DNA of 64,000 nt from an uncultured Methanoregulaceae archaeon (GTDB taxonomy: Archaea; Halobacteriota; Methanomicrobia; Methanomicrobiales; Methanospirillaceae), in assembly GCA_963701095.1 (NCBI GenBank), contig OY969564.1, positions 32,001 through 96,000 on the forward strand. The letters run 5' to 3'. This document shows positions 2,315 through 13,139 of this stretch, one piece after another; position 1 is the stretch's first letter; every line of letters begins with the position of its first letter. Under the pieces are notes generated by a model. The model saw only the letters and a program-made list of their open reading frames with translations. It made no database searches and was not told the DNA's origin. Position numbers and translations under genes: made by a program.

Positions 2315-3300
2315 TCACCGGTATTTTTTCTGTTCGAGCACCGCATCGACTATCACAAGGGCGAGCATCGCTTCTGCCACCGGGATTATCCGGGGCACAA
2401 TACAGGGATCATGTCGCCCGCCAACGTTTATATCAACGACGTTTCCGTGGATGTCTCGTGTTTTCTGGGTCTTTGCAATGGATGGCGTTGGTTTGACGGC
2501 AATACGAACGACAATATCCTTGCCTGACGAAATGCCTCCAAGAATCCCCCCGGCATGGTTGGAGGCAAACCCGGTTTTGGTCATCTGGTCATTGTTCTCA
2601 CTTCCAAACCGCCCGGCAACAGCAAAACCATCACCTATTTCGACTCCTTTAACTGCACCGATTCCCATCATTGCACCGGCAAGTGCGGCGTCGAGTTTGC
2701 CGGAAACCGGGTCTCCCAGTCCTACCGGACAGCCGGACGCCACGATCTCTGCAATCCCTCCTACGGAGTCACCCGCATTTTTTACTGCAAGTATTTCCTG
2801 TTCAATTTCCCGGGTGGTGGTTTTCCCATGCACGGATATAATCCGGCCGGTCACCGCAATCCCGAAGCCGGAAAGGTACTTTAACGCAACTGCTCCTGCC
2901 GCTACCCGTCCTACGGTTTCCCTGCCCGAACTCCGTCCACCGCCCCGGTAATCGCGGATCCCGTATTTTTCCTGGTAGGTGAAATCTGCATGACCTGGAC
3001 GGAATTTTTCTTTGATTGCTGCGTAATCGCCTGAGTGCATATCCCGGTTCCTGACCAGTAACGCAATCGGAGATCCTGTAGTCATCCCCTCAAATACACC
3101 GGAGAGGATTTCGACTGTGTCAGTTTCGTTGCGGGCCGTTGTAAGGTCAGAAGTGCCCGGCGGCGCCGGTCAAGCAGAGGCTGGATATCTGCGGTAGATA
3201 ATGCGAGCTGTGCCGGGCATCCGTCAATTACCACCCCCACGGCCGGACCGTGGCTTTCCCCGAATGTTGTAACTGCAAAATTCCTGCCAAAGGTGTTCAT
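2315..3300 (-). CDS. aroC: Chorismate synthase (frameshift near 3160)
   Basis: TTFGESHG in ORF 3082-3300; [16 protein letters not shown] and RHDPC in ORF 2315-3085; one added C restores [14 protein letters not shown]. Confidence 0.93.
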
Positions 3301-4686
3301 GCCAATATCTCCCGTATGACCGTCTCGGGAACGTCTATCCCAAAGAAGAGACGGAACTGTTCGCGTGCCTGGTGGATAAAAACCTCAGTCCCGGTAATGG
3401 TTTTACATCCTGCTCTTCGGGCGGCTGCAATAAACGGTGTGACCGGAGGTGTATACACAAGATCAAATACGGTCATCTCCTTTTTGAGCTGATCGTCCCG
3501 AACCGGACTTGAGGTATCCGGGTCCATACCAACAGGTGTTGCGTTTACCACCAGATCCGGAGTTATTCCATCAAATGCGTCCCATGTGCGCCAGCTGCAA
3601 CCAAACCGTTTTGCAAGCGCCTGTGCTTTTCGTGGTGTCCGGTTCAGGATGATAACCTCCATATCAAGATCCAACAATGCATACGCTGCAGCCGCAGCAA
3701 CCCCTCCGGCACCGAGCGGTCCTGCACAAGATCCGGCCAGATTTTCAAGAGGTTTTCGTATCCCCTGCCAGTCGGTATTGCTGCCATACGTCTTTTCGCA
3801 GGCAAAAACAACCGTATTTACCGCCCCTATCTTTCGGGCTGACTCGTCGATCTCGTCAAGAAGAGCCATTATATCCTGTTTAAAGGGGATGGTAACCGAG
3901 AGCCCTTTTGCATCGATCTCCCGGGCTTTTTCCATGATAGTCTGTATTGACGGATCCCAGAACCGGGTGTAATGGCAGTTGAGCTGGTATTTCTCAAACA
4001 GCCTGTTAAAAAGCAGGGGACCTTTGCTGTGTCCACAGGGGCAGCCGGCAACACCGAGAAACCGGATCTGCGGGTCATACCGGGTGCCAACCAACAGGGA
4101 TTTCATCTGCTCCCGTTCCTGAACCGGGAGAGGGCTTGCTGCAAACCACCGGAAGACAGACTCCCGGGTCGGTGCAAAAACAGTACCTTTATCCAGAAGA
4201 CAAAGTATGTTGTCAGCTGCCTGTTCCGTCGATGTTCGGCTCGTGTCAACGCAAAAATCTGCAGCCGCAGCATAGTTGCATCGCCTGGAAGCGATTACGT
4301 GGGCGATCTCTTCTTCCGGAGGAAGACCGGTAAGGGGAGGCCGGGGAGATCGTGCCAGCCGGCGACCGATAGTCGCATGATCCGCGTGCAGGAGGACACC
4401 TATGCTTGCTGCACGAAGCTGTTCCATTTTTGCCGGATCCATCACGACGCCACCTCCGGTACTGACGATACAGTCTGATGAAGGAAGACTGGAAATCACT
4501 TCGCGTTCAAGGATCCGGAACCTCCTCTCCCCCTCATTACGGAATATCTCGGGGATTGTTTGGCCGCTCCTTTTTTCTACTAATTCGTCGGTGTCGATAA
4601 AAGCTCATCCCGAGCCGCCGGGCAAGAACGGTTCCGATAGCTGTTTTGCCCGTACCCCGGTATCCGAAGAGTACGATCCTTTTCAT
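3297..4686 (-). CDS. aroE: Shikimate kinase (P-loop type) - shikimate dehydrogenase fusion (frameshift near 4600)
   Basis: ATG 4686 gives [15 protein letters not shown]; removing one T gives FIDTD...EGERRFR..E...STGGG; C-terminal HSKGP, SVTIPFK, GAVNT, NTDW, NATPVG, DLVY motifs. Confidence 0.88.
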
Positions 4687-8552: not shown

Positions 8553-9336
8553 CTATTTCTGCTCCAGGGCTTTTTTCGGGTCGACGTTGTGGTGCACGAC
8601 ACGACAGATAGACTGGACAAATGCCCGGGTGTTGTCGCGCTGGAAGGCATTTCTTCCCATGCAGACACCTGCCCCCCCGGCTGCGATAGAGTCCCGGATC
8701 ATTTCAAGCGATTCAAGGTCGCTTATTTTTTCACCGCCAGCTGACAAAAACCGGTACCGAACAGGCTTTCGTGATCCGGGTAAATGCTTCAGGCGTCCCC
8801 GGGTAGCTGGTTTTAATCATGTCGGCGCCCAGTTCCTCGGCTACTCTTACACATTGGCCGATGGTCTGTGGCGATGCGGGATCGATACCTTTTCCCCGCG
8901 GGTAGATCATCACCAGGAGCGGGATGCCCCAGCGGTTGCAGTCCCGGACGATTTTTGCCCCGGATTCAAGCATTTTCGATTCGTTTGGAGCACCGAGGTT
9001 GATATGGATGGAGACCGCATCGGCGCCCAGAGCGATGGCCTCTTCAACAGAACAGACAAGCACCTTGTCGTTGGGGTCCGGGTTGAGTGAAGTACTTCCC
9101 GAGAGGTGCACAATAAGGCCGATGTCTCGGCCATGTCTCCGGTGACCTGTCTTGACCATACCCTTATGGAGGACGATAGCGTTTGCCCCGCCTTCACTGA
9201 TATCGGTTATTACTTTAGTCATATCAAGGAGGCCGTCAATCTGTCCCATGGAAAAACCATGGTCCATCGGTATAATCACCGAGCGTCCCGTGTTCCTGTC
9301 TATAATTCGTTCGATCCTGATTTCCTTTCCTACCAT
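8553..9336 (-). CDS. ADH synthase / DhnA-type class I aldolase, paralog 2 (frameshift near 8748)
   Basis: PMDHG, HLSGST, GADAVS.H.N.G, YPRG, ELGADMIKT; removing one T restores PVLSAGG...GRNAFQ. Confidence 0.85.
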
Positions 9337-9346
9337 GATTTTTCCC

Positions 9347-10138
9347 TCACGCATTGAGAATTTTTAGCGCTTCCGTGACGCTCATATTCTGGTGCACGAT
9401 ACAGGCTGCCGCACGGACAAACTTGTCCGGTGTCCGGTGCTGGAAAGCATTCCGGCCAATCGAGATCCCGGCAGCTCCTCCCGCGATCGCGCCTTCAATC
9501 AGTTCAAGTGTTGTGCGGTCATCAGTCTTTGAACCTCCGGCAACAACAACTGGAACAGGGCAACCTCTGGTTACTTCGCGAAACGATTCCGGATCACCGG
9601 TATATACCGTTTTCACGATATCTGCCCCCAGCTCAGCTGCTACCCGGGCTGCGAGTTTAACCTGGTCGACATCATTTTCTTTTTTAATGTCCTTGCCTCG
9701 CGGGTACATCATTGCGAGCAATGGCATGCCCCATTCCATACATTCGATGGCGACATTTCCCAGATCCGAGAGCATCCGGGCTTCAGAATCTGCTCCGATA
9801 TTGACATGCATCGAGACCGCGTCAGCACCCATCCTGAGAGCGTTGGTTACAGAATTCACCAGCACTTTCTCGTTCGGATCCGGGGAGATCGAAGTACTTG
9901 CTGACAGATGCAGGATAAGCCCGATATCCCGGCCTCCCTGACGGTGACCGTAAAGGGCAAGGCCGACATGTCCTATAACGGCGTTCGCTCCACCGTCAGC
10001 AACGAGGTTAACTGCCTGCGACATATCAATAAGGCCCTGGATCGGGCCGTTTGTCACACCGTGATCCATCGGTACTATTACTGTTTTTTTCGTATTCCGG
10101 TTCATGATACGTTCCAGACGAATTTCTTTACCGCTCAT
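9347..10138 (-). CDS. 2-amino-3,7-dideoxy-D-threo-hept-6-ulosonate (ADH) synthase, paralog 1; first gene of the aro operon
   Basis: [47 protein letters not shown]-like site upstream of ATG 10138. Confidence 0.88.
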
Positions 10139-10146
10139 AACAACAA

Positions 10147-10194
10147 CAACTCCCCCTTCAGCCCTGAACAAGAGATCAGATATTGAAGGGAATT
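10147..10194 (-). promoter_or_regulatory. Predicted hairpin pairing the leader stop region with the SD of the first aro gene
   Basis: mRNA UAAUUCCCUUCA-AUAUCUGA-UCUCUUGU-UCAGGGC-UGAAGGGGGAGUU: CCCUUCA/UGAAGGG outer stem and UCUGA/UCAGG inner stem. Confidence 0.6.
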
Positions 10195-10264
10195 ACCGAT
10201 ACCAGGAATAAAACCTGAATCTAAAATAGCTAAAAAAACCGAAAACGCTAGAGCAAAGGCTCAT
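10193..10264 (-). CDS. Putative aromatic-rich leader peptide (23 aa, MSLCSSVFGFFSYFRFRFYSWYR)
   Basis: Read manually; 6 Phe, 3 Tyr, 1 Trp; stop 54 nt upstream of the aro operon start. Confidence 0.75.
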   Translation of the reverse strand: MSLCSSVFGFFSYFRFRFYSWYR

Positions 10265-10460
10265 AACGCATGTTTTTTCAGAAACGGGACTGATTATGCT
10301 CCGGACGGGTGCTGCGCTTTCAGAGATAAAGACATTCACGAGGGAAAAAACCCTCACGGGCGCTGGCGCACTCTTCCTGCATGATCATTTGTTTGGATTT
10401 GTGCCTATATAATTGTGTGTGCTAATGTGTAGCATGGCAGAAAAATATAACCTTATTCCA

Positions 10461-13139
10461 TTATTGTTTTCCGGTAAACCGGAATGATCCGGTCGGTACT
10501 GCCATCTCAAATCGTGCTCCTGCTCCGGGCTCTCCTGTTTCCCGGATCGTGATTCCGGTAAGGGAGAGGATTTCCCGGGCAAGGAAAAGACCGAGGCCGG
10601 TATTCTTCCCAAAACCACGATCGAATATCTTTTCCTTATACTCCTGGAGAACACCGACTCCGTCATCTTCACAGACAATAATCTCGTTTCCATTCTTCTC
10701 AGAAAGAGAGAACCGGATGGTGCTGATTTTTCCTCCATACCGGATCGCATTATCGACGAGATTGTAGATTACCTTGACAATTAACGGATCGGAAAAAACT
10801 TCTGCACCTGCGGGAATCTCGTTTTTTACCATGACATTTCCCAGCGACACCTGCCGTACTGCAGTTTCAGCAAGATTCCGTATGTCCTGCCATACAGGAT
10901 CTGTTTTCCGTACCGATTCGTATGCACTGGCAAACTGGATCATGGAGGAAATACGCGTGCTTACCTGAGAGATCCAGGTAAAATAATCCTCGACAGAAGG
11001 ATCCTTGACTTTTTCGTGAAGCAATTCAAGGAAACCATTCAATGCAAGAAGCTGGTTATTGATATCATGTCTGGTCACATGGGTGAGAAGAGCAAGGCTC
11101 CTATTAGCCTGCTGGAGCGCTTCTTCTGATCTACGGGATTCGGTTACGTCGCGGATAGCGCCGATTAATATTTCTTGTCCCTGGAAAGACATGACGTTTA
11201 CGGTAATTTCGACCGGGAAGACACTGCCGTCTTTTCTCTTATGATACCTGTCCCGTATAAATTTCGTCCTCTCTGCGATCGCGGAACGTGTAGCATCCGA
11301 CTCAGCGGAAAGGGCAGTTATAGGTAGTCCACGTAAGTCGTCAGTCAAATACCCATGCATGACTGCCAATGCATCGTTACAATCAATAATTTTCCCGGTT
11401 TTCTGGTCTATCAATGCAATACCGTCGGATTCAGCGGCAAATATACCCCTGAATTTCGCCTCACTTTCCATGAGAGCAGCTTCGATGCGTTTACGTTCCG
11501 TGATATCTGAACCGATGCTGAAGAGGCCGGTAAACTCACCGTTCTCATCAAACAGCGGTTTGTTGTACCACCGGATCCAGACACGCCTTCCGTAATGTGT
11601 TATATTCTCATTTTCATTGACAACGTAATTTTCAGGACGGCGGATAATATCCTCAATCATGTGAGCGAGACCCTTGTCCGATCCTGATTCACTGGCAGGA
11701 ACGATCGTTTCCATGACCGATCGTCCAATGATCTCATCACTGGAATAACCGAAGAACTCCAGGGCATATTCATTTGCGAAGGTAATTATGCCCGATTTAT
11801 CCCATTTTACGATTATACTGTTTGCGTTTTCGATCAATTCACGGTATTTTTCCTCGCTCTCCCGCAGCAATATTTCGGCCTGCTTCCTTCGGGTAATATC
11901 ACGGAGAATGACAAGTCCTGCGGGTTTACCCTGGTACCGGTAGGGTGCAATGGATGATTCGACGTTGATGGGGGTACCGTCAATTTTAAGGTATACTGAC
12001 TCACTAATGCCGCCAGGTTTCCCCTCTTTCATAACGTTCACTGCACGTTTGCGGATCTCTTCGTGATAAGAAGGATGGATCCGGTCGTAGAGTGATGTGT
12101 TCACAAGCTGATCTACAGATGTAGCACCCATGAGCCGGACCATCGCCGGATTAACATAGGCAAATGAATCACCGACAATAATATAAATGGCGTCAGGTGC
12201 CGCTTCGACAAGCTGTTGAAAATTCTCCTCGGTTTCCCGGATCAGGTTCTCTGTTCGTCCGAGCTCATCAAACTGGCTGCGCAGCTCTTCTTCGGAAGCA
12301 GCAATCTGCTCGTATGCGGCTCTCAGTTCAGTTTCAGCCCGTTTTTGTTCAGTTATGTCACGGATGGATTCAATTGCGCCTAAAATTTTTCCTTTATCAT
12401 CGAGAAGAAGGCTAGCTTTTGCCCAAAGATTGACATTTGTTCCATCAGGCCTCACAAAAGAGGTCTCCGCCATCAGCACCCTTCCACCGTGTATCGTATA
12501 GGTATAGTGTTCTTTCTCGAATACGGCATTCGGATCAAGGATGAGGTCAGCAAGCATCGGCCGGCGTTTTTGATATATTGTTAAAGCATGTTCGTAGTTA
12601 TTTTTTCCAAGAATTTCTGAAGGTCTGACCCCGGTCATTTCTTCCATCGCACGGTTCCACACAATAACCTTTCTCGATTTGTCAAGGACAAAGGTGGGGT
12701 CCGGCAGGAAATTGATGATATCGGTTTCACGGCGTTCATGTTCACGCAGCTGCGTCTCTGCCCATCTTTTCTGGACAGCGTGGCGGAGTTTGAATGCAAG
12801 CTCGGTAAACTGGGAAACGGGCTCGCCACCTTTCTGGAGATAGAAATCGGCACCTTCATTGAGTGCCTGAATGACGATCTCTTCCCTTCCTCTTCCGGTA
12901 AAAAGGATAAAGGGAATCGTTTTTCCTGAACTACGGACTTTTTTCAGGAATTCAATTCCATCAATCTCAGGCATCTGGTAATCGGAAACGATAGCGTCAT
13001 AGTTTTTTGTTGCCATCAGCACCAGTGCATCCCGTGCTGAGCTAATGATATCAACAGAAAACTGACCGCCCCGCTCAAGAAAAAGTTTTCCGATTTCAAG
13101 CATGGCCGATTCATCATCGACGTAGAGGATGGAAATCAT
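10461..13139 (-). CDS. Hybrid REC - multi-PAS - histidine kinase
   Basis: ILYVDD..SDYQMP..FTGRG receiver; about four PAS/PAC repeats; RHDINNQL H-box, NLVDNA, DDGVG, GLGLF. Confidence 0.92.
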   Translation of the reverse strand: MISILYVDDESAMLEIGKLFLERGGQFSVDIISSARDALVLMATKNYDAIVSDYQMPEIDGIEFLKKVRSSGKTIPFILFTGRGREEIVIQALNEGADFYLQKGGEPVSQFTELAFKLRHAVQKRWAETQLREHERRETDIINFLPDPTFVLDKSRKVIVWNRAMEEMTGVRPSEILGKNNYEHALTIYQKRRPMLADLILDPNAVFEKEHYTYTIHGGRVLMAETSFVRPDGTNVNLWAKASLLLDDKGKILGAIESIRDITEQKRAETELRAAYEQIAASEEELRSQFDELGRTENLIRETEENFQQLVEAAPDAIYIIVGDSFAYVNPAMVRLMGATSVDQLVNTSLYDRIHPSYHEEIRKRAVNVMKEGKPGGISESVYLKIDGTPINVESSIAPYRYQGKPAGLVILRDITRRKQAEILLRESEEKYRELIENANSIIVKWDKSGIITFANEYALEFFGYSSDEIIGRSVMETIVPASESGSDKGLAHMIEDIIRRPENYVVNENENITHYGRRVWIRWYNKPLFDENGEFTGLFSIGSDITERKRIEAALMESEAKFRGIFAAESDGIALIDQKTGKIIDCNDALAVMHGYLTDDLRGLPITALSAESDATRSAIAERTKFIRDRYHKRKDGSVFPVEITVNVMSFQGQEILIGAIRDVTESRRSEEALQQANRSLALLTHVTRHDINNQLLALNGFLELLHEKVKDPSVEDYFTWISQVSTRISSMIQFASAYESVRKTDPVWQDIRNLAETAVRQVSLGNVMVKNEIPAGAEVFSDPLIVKVIYNLVDNAIRYGGKISTIRFSLSEKNGNEIIVCEDDGVGVLQEYKEKIFDRGFGKNTGLGLFLAREILSLTGITIRETGEPGAGARFEMAVPTGSFRFTGKQ

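Follow-up and report, generated by a model that had tools for sequence, protein, structure and literature searches.

An aromatic-codon leader ending at a Shine–Dalgarno hairpin upstream of the aro operon of Methanomicrobiales: a candidate translational attenuator

How might a methanogen adjust the synthesis of phenylalanine, tyrosine and tryptophan to its supply of the charged tRNAs? This question is raised by a stretch of 64,000 nucleotides (nt) from an uncultured Methanoregulaceae archaeon (contig OY969564.1, positions 32,001 to 96,000; hereafter the window, numbered from its first letter), in which an operon of aromatic amino-acid (aro) genes on the minus strand is preceded by a small open reading frame (ORF) dense in Phe, Tyr and Trp codons. 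Leader-peptide attenuation through cognate codons is a textbook bacterial mechanism, and the original prediction, made from the letters of this DNA, was that the small ORF is a leader of the pheL/trpL type sensing aromatic aminoacyl-tRNA. We found an aromatic-rich frame upstream of the first aro gene, the ADH synthase gene, throughout one archaeal order; in the genomes with a short spacer, its stop codon is set against a predicted hairpin that holds the Shine–Dalgarno (SD) sequence of that gene. We consider it probable that the operon is under translational attenuation by this aromatic-codon leader, with the SD hairpin as the switch.

A conserved reading frame with an aromatic-rich 3' end

The ORF that had been described, 23 codons long with the sequence MSLCSSVFGFFSYFRFRFYSWYR (10264..10193, minus strand; ATG at 10264, TAA at 10195-10193), was present in the window. 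Its aromatic codons lie at 10199-10243, its last 16 residues include six Phe, three Tyr and one Trp, and its TAA stands 54 nt before the ADH synthase ATG (10138). The out-of-frame ATG at 10271, giving MRYEPLL, was likewise there. A further caveat had been that a T7 run within the ORF might be an indel of the assembly. The run exists (10238-10232), but the suspicion of an artefact was not borne out: a contig from the DNA run of an independent sample (X3, covering 10156-10365) matched the window with 0 differences and 0 gaps, showing that the run is not an assembly indel. What did not survive comparison was the 23-codon ORF as the unit, because ATG 10264 is not conserved, being absent from L002 and L003. 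Reading back over at least 40-60 codons, the conserved frame reaches a conserved 5' element where the transcript is predicted to start. This tail frame (frame A; 10193..10357, minus strand) comprises, in the window, 54 codons counted from GTG 10357, the first start codon in that frame, and consists of a variable linker and the aromatic-rich 3' end. The unit in the window is therefore one of two: this frame of 54 codons (10357..10193), or a trans-frame product that begins at ATG 10382, as discussed below.

The ADH synthase gene was located in 51 of 61 relatives, in 39 of 39 members of one family and in 18 of 20 of another. Five genomes were left out, as their upstream sequence was too short (L005 and L094) or masked (L046), the gene was broken and its start not located (L049) or only a paralogue was present (L050); L014 (128 nt) shows both the tail and the hairpin and stands outside the counts. 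The 93 in-order upstream regions, drawn from 91 genomes, 23 genus groups and six families, all had an aromatic-enriched frame before the ADH synthase gene, as would be expected of the conserved upstream ORF that had been predicted. The best window of ten codons held at least six aromatic codons in 82 regions, five in ten and four in one; on reading of the sequence, the tail of L077 (YRFFSETFRSGAWAPYRRF) is weaker. Outside the order, 32 genomes representing 15 families of the phylum had no comparable leader; their best window reached at most five and none lay beside the start codon (six further families of the phylum fell outside this comparison). Among the families sampled, the element is restricted to one order, the Methanomicrobiales, within which named relatives assign the window to Methanoregula (Methanoregulaceae).

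Aromatic-dense windows are in themselves not rare genome-wide, since 579 of about 3.46 million stop-free windows in the six-frame space of the genome contain at least seven aromatic residues per 12 codons. Within the set of 6,880 intergenic frames from this genome (stop-to-stop segments no more than 200 nt before an ORF of 120 amino acids or longer), however, the leader came first, with ten aromatic residues in its last 16 against eight for the runners-up, and only one of 200 dinucleotide shuffles of the window region attained its aromatic density, so that the enrichment stood above both the intergenic ORFs and the shuffled sequence. When 46 in-order regions were each compared with 200 dinucleotide shuffles, 34 were matched by two shuffles or fewer and the other 12 by 4-50. 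The decisive evidence beyond chance is the conservation across the order.

The tail frame also carries a clear coding signal. Its last 40 codons were stop-free in 52 of 53 in-order genomes, compared with 1 and 7 of 53 for the other two frames, which averaged 2.6 and 1.4 stops over the same codons; the exception, L048, carries a tail indel, and further genes are broken in the assembly that it belongs to. For 37 dissimilar representatives the stop-free counts were 37 in the tail frame and 0 and 5 in the other frames. The tail frame stays open for 43-111 codons, reaching the conserved 5' element. Counted from the stop codon (n=52), the aromatic fraction was 0.62, 0.65, 0.73, 0.79 and 0.98 at positions -1 to -5, 0.63 at -7 and 0.79 at -8; from -26 to -40 it did not exceed 0.10. 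Of the last 12 codons, 61% were aromatic (Phe 30%, Tyr 25% and Trp 6%), and both other frames gave far lower values. Although no alignment of the linker between genera is possible, it stays open throughout. That openness and tail composition alone are kept fits a regulatory ORF better than a functional peptide. NCBIfam had no family for the tail frame or for the second small ORF of the leader (ORF B, below), and an Rfam 15 scan of 9900-10700 with E values up to 10 returned two chance-level matches only (E 0.74 and 6.4), far below gathering scores. Of the features that mark leader-peptide attenuators in the broad sense, the locus thus shows two, a conserved open frame in the 5' leader and clustered end-product codons; translation of the leader and a response to charged tRNA are predicted. 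The enrichment on which the original prediction was built stands, whereas the 23-codon unit and, as the following section shows, a mechanism of the pheL/trpL type are not supported.

A hairpin on the Shine–Dalgarno sequence and the proposed switch

What follows the leader stop codon? In the window, RNAfold predicted a hairpin whose 5' arm UCCCUUCA (anti-SD; 10184..10191, minus strand) begins 1 nt after the leader stop, and whose 3' arm UGAAGGGG (10160-10153) overlaps the SD sequence GGGGGAG (10156-10150), so that arm and SD together occupy 10150..10160 of the minus strand. The 16S rRNA 3' end GGATCACCTCCT agrees with the SD assignments. In the 47 genomes of the short-spacer set, defined by a leader stop at most 75 nt from the start codon, the 3' arm of the minimum-free-energy hairpin includes the G-rich SD region and the 5' arm begins 0-5 nt past the stop. 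The arms vary by lineage and stay complementary (CCCUUCA/UGAAGGG, CCCUCUG/CAGGGGG, CCCGGAA/UUCCGGG, CCCGCCG/CGGCGGG and CUCAGCAG/CUGCUGAG). In an arm-swap control, cognate pairs averaged -15.0 kcal/mol and inter-genus swaps -10.7 kcal/mol, the cognate arms being 4.4 kcal/mol more stable than the swapped ones, with a negative difference in 12 of 12 genus groups. Folding z-scores were negative in all 17 representatives and -2 or lower in nine of them. Per-sequence folds and the arm-swap control were used because an alignment-based fold misaligned the 3' arms: the MAFFT and RNAalifold consensus of 22 Methanoregulaceae spacers yielded a weak five-pair structure of -2.31 kcal/mol.

No terminator-like hairpin with a U-run was found before the first gene in the 47 short-spacer genomes, where the SD hairpin is the sole strong structure after the stop. 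The analogy with pheL and trpL consequently fails at this point, as neither a terminator nor an antiterminator was seen and the stop abuts an SD-sequestering hairpin instead. Translational attenuation is implied, because the leader stop adjoins this hairpin and a terminator was not found.

In our proposal, a leader is translated from the 5' part of the aro mRNA; the sequence of its peptide would matter little, and its last ~12 codons, about 60% of them for Phe, Tyr or Trp, would act as the sensor. When aromatic aminoacyl-tRNAs are plentiful, ribosomes would pass through the leader and leave, the hairpin would stay closed and translation of the operon would be poor. A shortage of Phe-, Tyr- or Trp-tRNA would make ribosomes dwell on the last codons and cover or unwind the anti-SD arm; the SD would thereby be exposed and translation of the operon would rise. 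The open frame, the position-specific aromatic enrichment, the geometry of stop, hairpin and SD with its covariation, and the restriction to one order are observed features of the locus. We infer that the leader is translated and that ribosomes stall in it, as well as the sign and size of the response, and the sensing of aminoacyl-tRNA would follow from the same reasoning. In an occlusion model, in which the RNA 5' of A-site+12 was removed and the unpaired probability of the SD core averaged (n=47), this probability was 0.25 in free RNA and 0.54, 0.62 and 0.57 with the A site at -2, at -1 and at the stop respectively. The model thus lends the mechanism modest support.

Several observations weigh against this proposal. 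In the window itself the SD opens best with the A site at -4 (0.64) and -3 (0.86), while -1 and the stop give 0.37 and 0.35, and the hairpin energy there is unexceptional (z = -0.99; 31 of 200 shuffles fold equally well). The most conserved aromatic position is -5, followed by high values at -7 and -8, all too far upstream to reach the hairpin; as a ribosome stalled at these positions should miss it, most of the aromatic codons are left unexplained by simple occlusion. The geometry is also not universal. In six genera of one family (g4, g8, g10, g74, g76 and g78) the leader lies 74-230 nt upstream, and the folds of g4, g8 and g10 show a large hairpin without the SD after the leader; in two Methanoregula genomes (L003 and L004) an insertion of ~70 nt separates the G-rich arm of the hairpin from the start codon. 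Related genomes are non-independent samples, and no cognate leader was found at the other amino-acid operons of this genome, so that the organism is not shown to use leader logic elsewhere. Finally, contigs from RNA libraries (two of six metatranscriptome runs, with small shares, from ~92%-identical relatives) cover 10166-10447 and also span DNA upstream of the predicted start, into the neighbouring kinase gene. As their coverage extends upstream of that start, they show neither the start nor transcription, and they may represent DNA or read-through.

Some details of these exceptional loci may be added. In L034, L038, L041 and L042 we saw a long hairpin, in some of them with T5-T8 runs in its 3' arm, together with an AT-rich spacer and no SD hairpin. 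The long-spacer genera may have a different read-out, possibly transcriptional, of the same sensor. In L003 and L004 a new SD is found further downstream, and the old SD arm is kept though it no longer serves the start codon. A genome-wide scan for intergenic tails rich in Trp, His, Ile/Leu/Val, Thr and other residues gave nothing convincing, and upstream of trpE (G000:C1:1518861-1519260) there was no Trp-rich ORF. A high AT content, a TATA-like box and a TGTACA motif mark this trpE region, and control of the trp operon seems to differ from that of the aro operon.

Which other explanations could account for the aromatic codons? They might act on transcription, with the position of the ribosome controlling termination at oligo-U in the leader or through a factor, and with the hairpin secondary. 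Oligo-T tracts are termination sites for archaeal RNA polymerase, T runs abound in the leader (the T7 run is one of them), and one family combines the long hairpin and T5-T8 runs described above with a long spacer. In the 47 short-spacer genomes, however, no T run separates the hairpin from the start codon, and the SD itself forms the 3' arm. The T runs of the leader are Phe codons kept in one frame alongside Tyr and Trp codons, and models of simple transcription–translation uncoupling give the wrong sign, with starvation lowering expression. We regard control of termination as unlikely. Constitutive translational coupling, where translation of the leader opens the SD hairpin and the aromatic codons are incidental or lower expression when aromatics are scarce, would suit a stop that abuts the anti-SD arm: any terminating ribosome should open the hairpin, as the value of 0.57 with the A site at the stop suggests, and the most conserved positions (-5, -7 and -8) lie too far upstream for occluding the arm. 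It leaves unexplained why the roughly six-fold enrichment concerns codons for precisely the three end products, why it is confined to one frame and to the 3' end, and why it persists through complete sequence turnover across six families; moreover, lower biosynthesis on starvation would be maladaptive. Such coupling therefore appears to us quite improbable.

The two remaining alternatives dispense with a sensor or with translation altogether. A functional small protein of about 45-60 amino acids, with a conserved N-terminus and an aromatic C-terminus and co-expressed with the pathway, would agree with the conserved open frame and the conserved N-terminal motif VF[SL]PVN[VA]FI. That motif, however, overlaps a second conserved frame and nucleotide-level signals, the middle and tail of the product are free in sequence and length with composition and openness alone being kept, NCBIfam gave no match, and the geometry of stop, hairpin and SD would be left unexplained; we judge a functional protein very unlikely. 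An untranslated T-rich DNA or RNA element that mimics an aromatic ORF, such as a protein-binding site or a structured RNA, is hardly credible in view of the one frame that lacks stops in 52 of 53 genomes (the other two do so in 1 and 7), the frame-specific aromatic enrichment, the length changes that preserve the frame (16 lengths, all 3n+1, see below) and the absence of an Rfam family. In its favour are the T-richness of the DNA, the conserved palindrome and direct repeats near the promoter, and RNA contigs that are uninformative on expression. Translational attenuation through the SD hairpin is accordingly the reading with which we continue.

Two overlapping frames and a candidate +1 frameshift

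How do ribosomes enter the tail frame? A predicted archaeal TATA box, AATTATATAGG (10404..10414, minus strand), is centred about 27 nt upstream of ATG 10382, and across 85 in-order genomes the distance from the TATA centre to the conserved ATG was 26-34 nt, with a mode of 28. As the conserved ATG lies ~28 nt from the TATA box, the aro mRNA is probably leaderless, starting at AUG 10382. This ATG (10382-10380) opens a second frame, ORF B, with the sequence MQEECASAREGFFPRECLYL and a TGA stop at 10322-10320 (10320..10382, minus strand). The ORF B ATG is found at the fixed TATA distance in all families, the ORF is 14-21 codons long in genomes with a U-run, and in other families it reads M-x-G-E-C-F-F-A-G-E-x-F-Y-x-x-stop. 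ORF B overlaps the tail frame, which lies +1 relative to it (the ATG being in the -1 frame relative to the tail). In the families other than Methanoregula, the ratio of nonsynonymous to synonymous polymorphism (pN/pS) upstream of the U-run was 0.38 in the ORF B frame compared with 3.15 in the tail frame, and downstream of it 0.44 and 0.67 respectively, from a small sample of non-independent sequences; Nei-Gojobori counts within Methanoregula could not tell the frames apart. Where the Phe and Tyr codons of ORF B vary between T and C in their third base, the amino acid of ORF B is kept, whereas in the tail frame a Ser becomes Leu or an Ile becomes Thr. By contrast, the four-way variation found one codon past the U-run is silent in the tail frame (Pro).

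The relation between the two frames was classified for 87 regions, six others being without an ATG call. A U-run together with an ATG-to-tail-stop distance of 3n+1 was found in 72 of the 87, with 16 different ATG-to-stop lengths from 133 to 298 nt, all of them 3n+1. Eleven regions without a U-run had a distance of 3n; L099 and L101 have a shortened T5 run that is read in frame, L048 is 3n+2 from its tail indel, and L055 and L075 are 3n+1 with a U-run on reading of the sequence. Among 75 named Methanoregulaceae and Methanomicrobiales loci, 62 fitted 3n+1, three had broken frames and ten were unmatched by the pattern (62 of 65). In 13 genomes of the genus groups g7, g10, g77 and g82, ORF B has no stop and the ATG is in frame with the tail. 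In all 13 comparisons, the fused N-termini were closer to the conceptual trans-frame product from sister genera than to the product of one frame alone, whichever frame was taken; the junction matched lies at the first of the two sites described next in 11 and at the second in two (g82). Homopolymer indels without any frameshifting could also be the source of these fusions.

Two candidate sites for a +1 shift are present in the overlap in the window. At the first (10344..10357, minus strand), an SD-like GUGAGGG is followed by UUU-UUC at 10349-10344, with a Phe codon in the A site. The second, CUU-UAU (10326..10331, minus strand), has a Tyr codon in the A site and the ORF B stop two codons further on. 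The corresponding motifs YUU-UUY and YUU-UAY occur in the overlap of the U-run genomes, and each is preceded by GGUGA or GAGGG, which are complementary to the 16S rRNA 3' end. At either motif, the P-site tRNA could pair anew with UUU after a +1 shift. The locus thus shows three of the features of programmed +1 frameshift sites: a conserved +1 overlap, a slippery P-site codon with an upstream stimulator, and relatives with fused frames.

The tail frame may be entered either by a +1 shift at these slippery Phe and Tyr sites or by a separate start at an in-frame GUG or AUG. In Methanoregula the in-frame GUG/AUG (10357 in the window) is 25 nt from the 5' end and has no well-placed SD, and a separate start is somewhat disfavoured for these reasons. 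As a tentative extension, which we hold to be possible rather than probable, the leader may be a two-stage ribosomal sensor based on a starvation-triggered programmed +1 frameshift. Ribosomes would start at the leaderless AUG in the short frame M-x-G-E-C-F-F-A-...-[F/L]-Y-...-stop; at a hungry Phe (YUU-UUY) or Tyr (YUU-UAY) codon in the A site, the P-site tRNA would slip by +1, aided by GGUGA or GAGGG. Only the shifted ribosomes would read the linker of ~35 codons and reach the aromatic tail, where further stalling would open the SD hairpin, and genera that lost the slippery sites would have fused both frames permanently. If true, this would be the first +1 programmed ribosomal frameshift (PRF) in an archaeal cellular transcript, and the first natural case, in any domain, of hungry frameshifting at sense codons as a metabolic sensor.

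Three further features of the leader were noted. A linker motif, UUUCUGAA or UUCUCUGAAC, recurs across families (at about 10279-10290 in the window, and mid-leader in most loci) and gives a UGA in the ORF B frame in Methanoregula. The segment 10321-10337 (GAAUGUCUUUAUCUC), around the second slippery motif, is complementary to 10117-10135, that is codons 2-7 of the ADH synthase gene, and the two pair in the predicted fold of the full 258-nt leader of the window (z = -2.48). We rejected this long-range pairing as a core feature, with z below -2 in 6 of 51 only, all of them in g1 (Methanoregula); it may be a genus-specific extra layer. Lastly, an inverted repeat TGCTA-N5-TAGCA adjoins the TATA box (10420-10434, minus strand) and in L023 and L027 is found directly upstream of the ATG. 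Genomes of other orders, which are without the leader, have a longer palindrome, GTGCTAC...GTAGCAC, between the TATA box and the ADH synthase SD (L067, L069, L070, L117-L119 and L131-L134). Judging from these sequences, the palindrome is probably the operator of a transcription factor controlling aro genes across the phylum, and Methanomicrobiales may use both the transcription factor and the leader.

Relation to known systems and the surrounding genes

In pheL-pheA, trpL and hisL, a leader ORF rich in codons for the product allows the ribosome to sense charged tRNA and to attenuate transcription. The methanogen element resembles them in having a leader ORF rich in end-product codons upstream of a biosynthetic operon. 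Unlike them, it has no terminator or antiterminator, nor a hairpin with a U-run before the first gene, the SD hairpin being the structure that would be regulated, and it mixes Phe, Tyr and Trp codons in a single leader. Regulation of aromatic amino-acid genes in archaea is known from transcription factors, of which TrpY is one. Another is Tar (TK0271) of Thermococcus (PMC6737238). The present case concerns the same class of genes, and the promoter palindrome suggests a transcription factor here too. However, Tar and TrpY are DNA-binding proteins that act at initiation, whereas the methanogen element is a cis-acting leader that is predicted to be translated.

Programmed +1 frameshifting is known from prfB. 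The candidate sites share with prfB-type and hungry-codon +1 shifts a shift-prone YUU-U P-site codon, a slow A-site codon, an SD-like element directly upstream, two conserved overlapping frames in +1 relation and relatives with fused frames. In the methanogens, by contrast, the slow codon would be a sense codon for a product of the pathway (Phe or Tyr), and the frameshift is a candidate only. Hungry-codon frameshifting is treated in a 2021 review (PMC8211752), which reports a single demonstrated archaeal cellular PRF, a -1 shift (fucA1).

The closest architecture that we found is that of a mycobacterial leaderless polycysteine small ORF (Ms5788A; Canestrari et al., bioRxiv 10.1101/834739). According to that preprint, it has been demonstrated experimentally that a stalled ribosome blocks a duplex sequestering the ribosome-binding site, the control being translational. 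The geometry in the methanogens likewise fits translational attenuation, in their case as a predicted element. The mycobacterial system is bacterial and senses Cys, whereas the methanogen element is archaeal and is proposed to sense three amino acids at once; its cognate codons make up the extreme 3' end of the frame, adjoining the stop and the anti-SD arm, and its leader is longer (about 45-60 codons), with a start that is mostly in another frame than the tail. The preprint also summarizes ermCL and cat, in which a ribosome arrested on the leader remodels a hairpin and frees the downstream SD (10.1101/834739). Arrest and SD release of this kind are proposed for the methanogens. In that summary, however, arrest depends on the drug and the nascent peptide rather than on hungry codons, and the genes controlled are for resistance, not biosynthesis.

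No archaeal leader-peptide attenuator was found in open-access papers and bioRxiv, and the element looks like the first ribosome-sensing leader-peptide switch seen in archaea. Its new aspects would be the archaeal domain, a sensor for three amino acids, the leaderless start and possibly recoding. If borne out, it would mean that archaeal ribosomes serve as amino-acid sensors, and would offer a natural archaeal system in which leaderless translation, the sequestration of SD sequences and, possibly, regulated +1 frameshifting could be studied. Systematic searches for upstream ORFs with cognate codons would also be justified in archaeal genomes, where such small ORFs go unannotated. The leader is conserved across the order and can be tested in cultured Methanoregula, Methanospirillum or Methanoculleus.

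The operon downstream has the eight-gene aro content that had been predicted, as Pfam and NCBIfam bear out, with several genes truncated or interrupted in the assembly. Its first gene (aroA'; 9347..10138, minus strand, ATG at 10138) has a Pfam DeoC match, and its product scores as ADH synthase in NCBIfam with 352.6 bits (TIGR01949) and 392.6 bits (NF005556); the N-terminus M(S/R)GK is kept in relatives. The first two genes are both of the DeoC type and both score as the ADH synthase subfamily. They are followed on the same strand by genes for DHQ synthase II, prephenate dehydrogenase, prephenate dehydratase-ACT and EPSP synthase, and the operon also holds a shikimate kinase/dehydrogenase ORF and chorismate synthase, so that it comprises tyrA and pheA together with the common aromatic pathway. 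Apparent interruptions were seen at 8731-9354, 2315-3085 and 3297-4499, and the second aldolase gene has an in-frame TGA. Chorismate synthase aligns to profile positions 66-327 only and the shikimate kinase part to 58-155 only. Leader frames are also broken in three related long-read metagenome-assembled genomes (L138, L139 and L184), and these interruptions and broken frames are probably indel noise rather than biology. The upstream neighbour on the minus strand (10461-13139) encodes a hybrid sensor of 892 amino acids, with an N-terminal receiver, four PAS domains and a histidine kinase ATPase domain, and this gene ends 47 nt before the TATA box.

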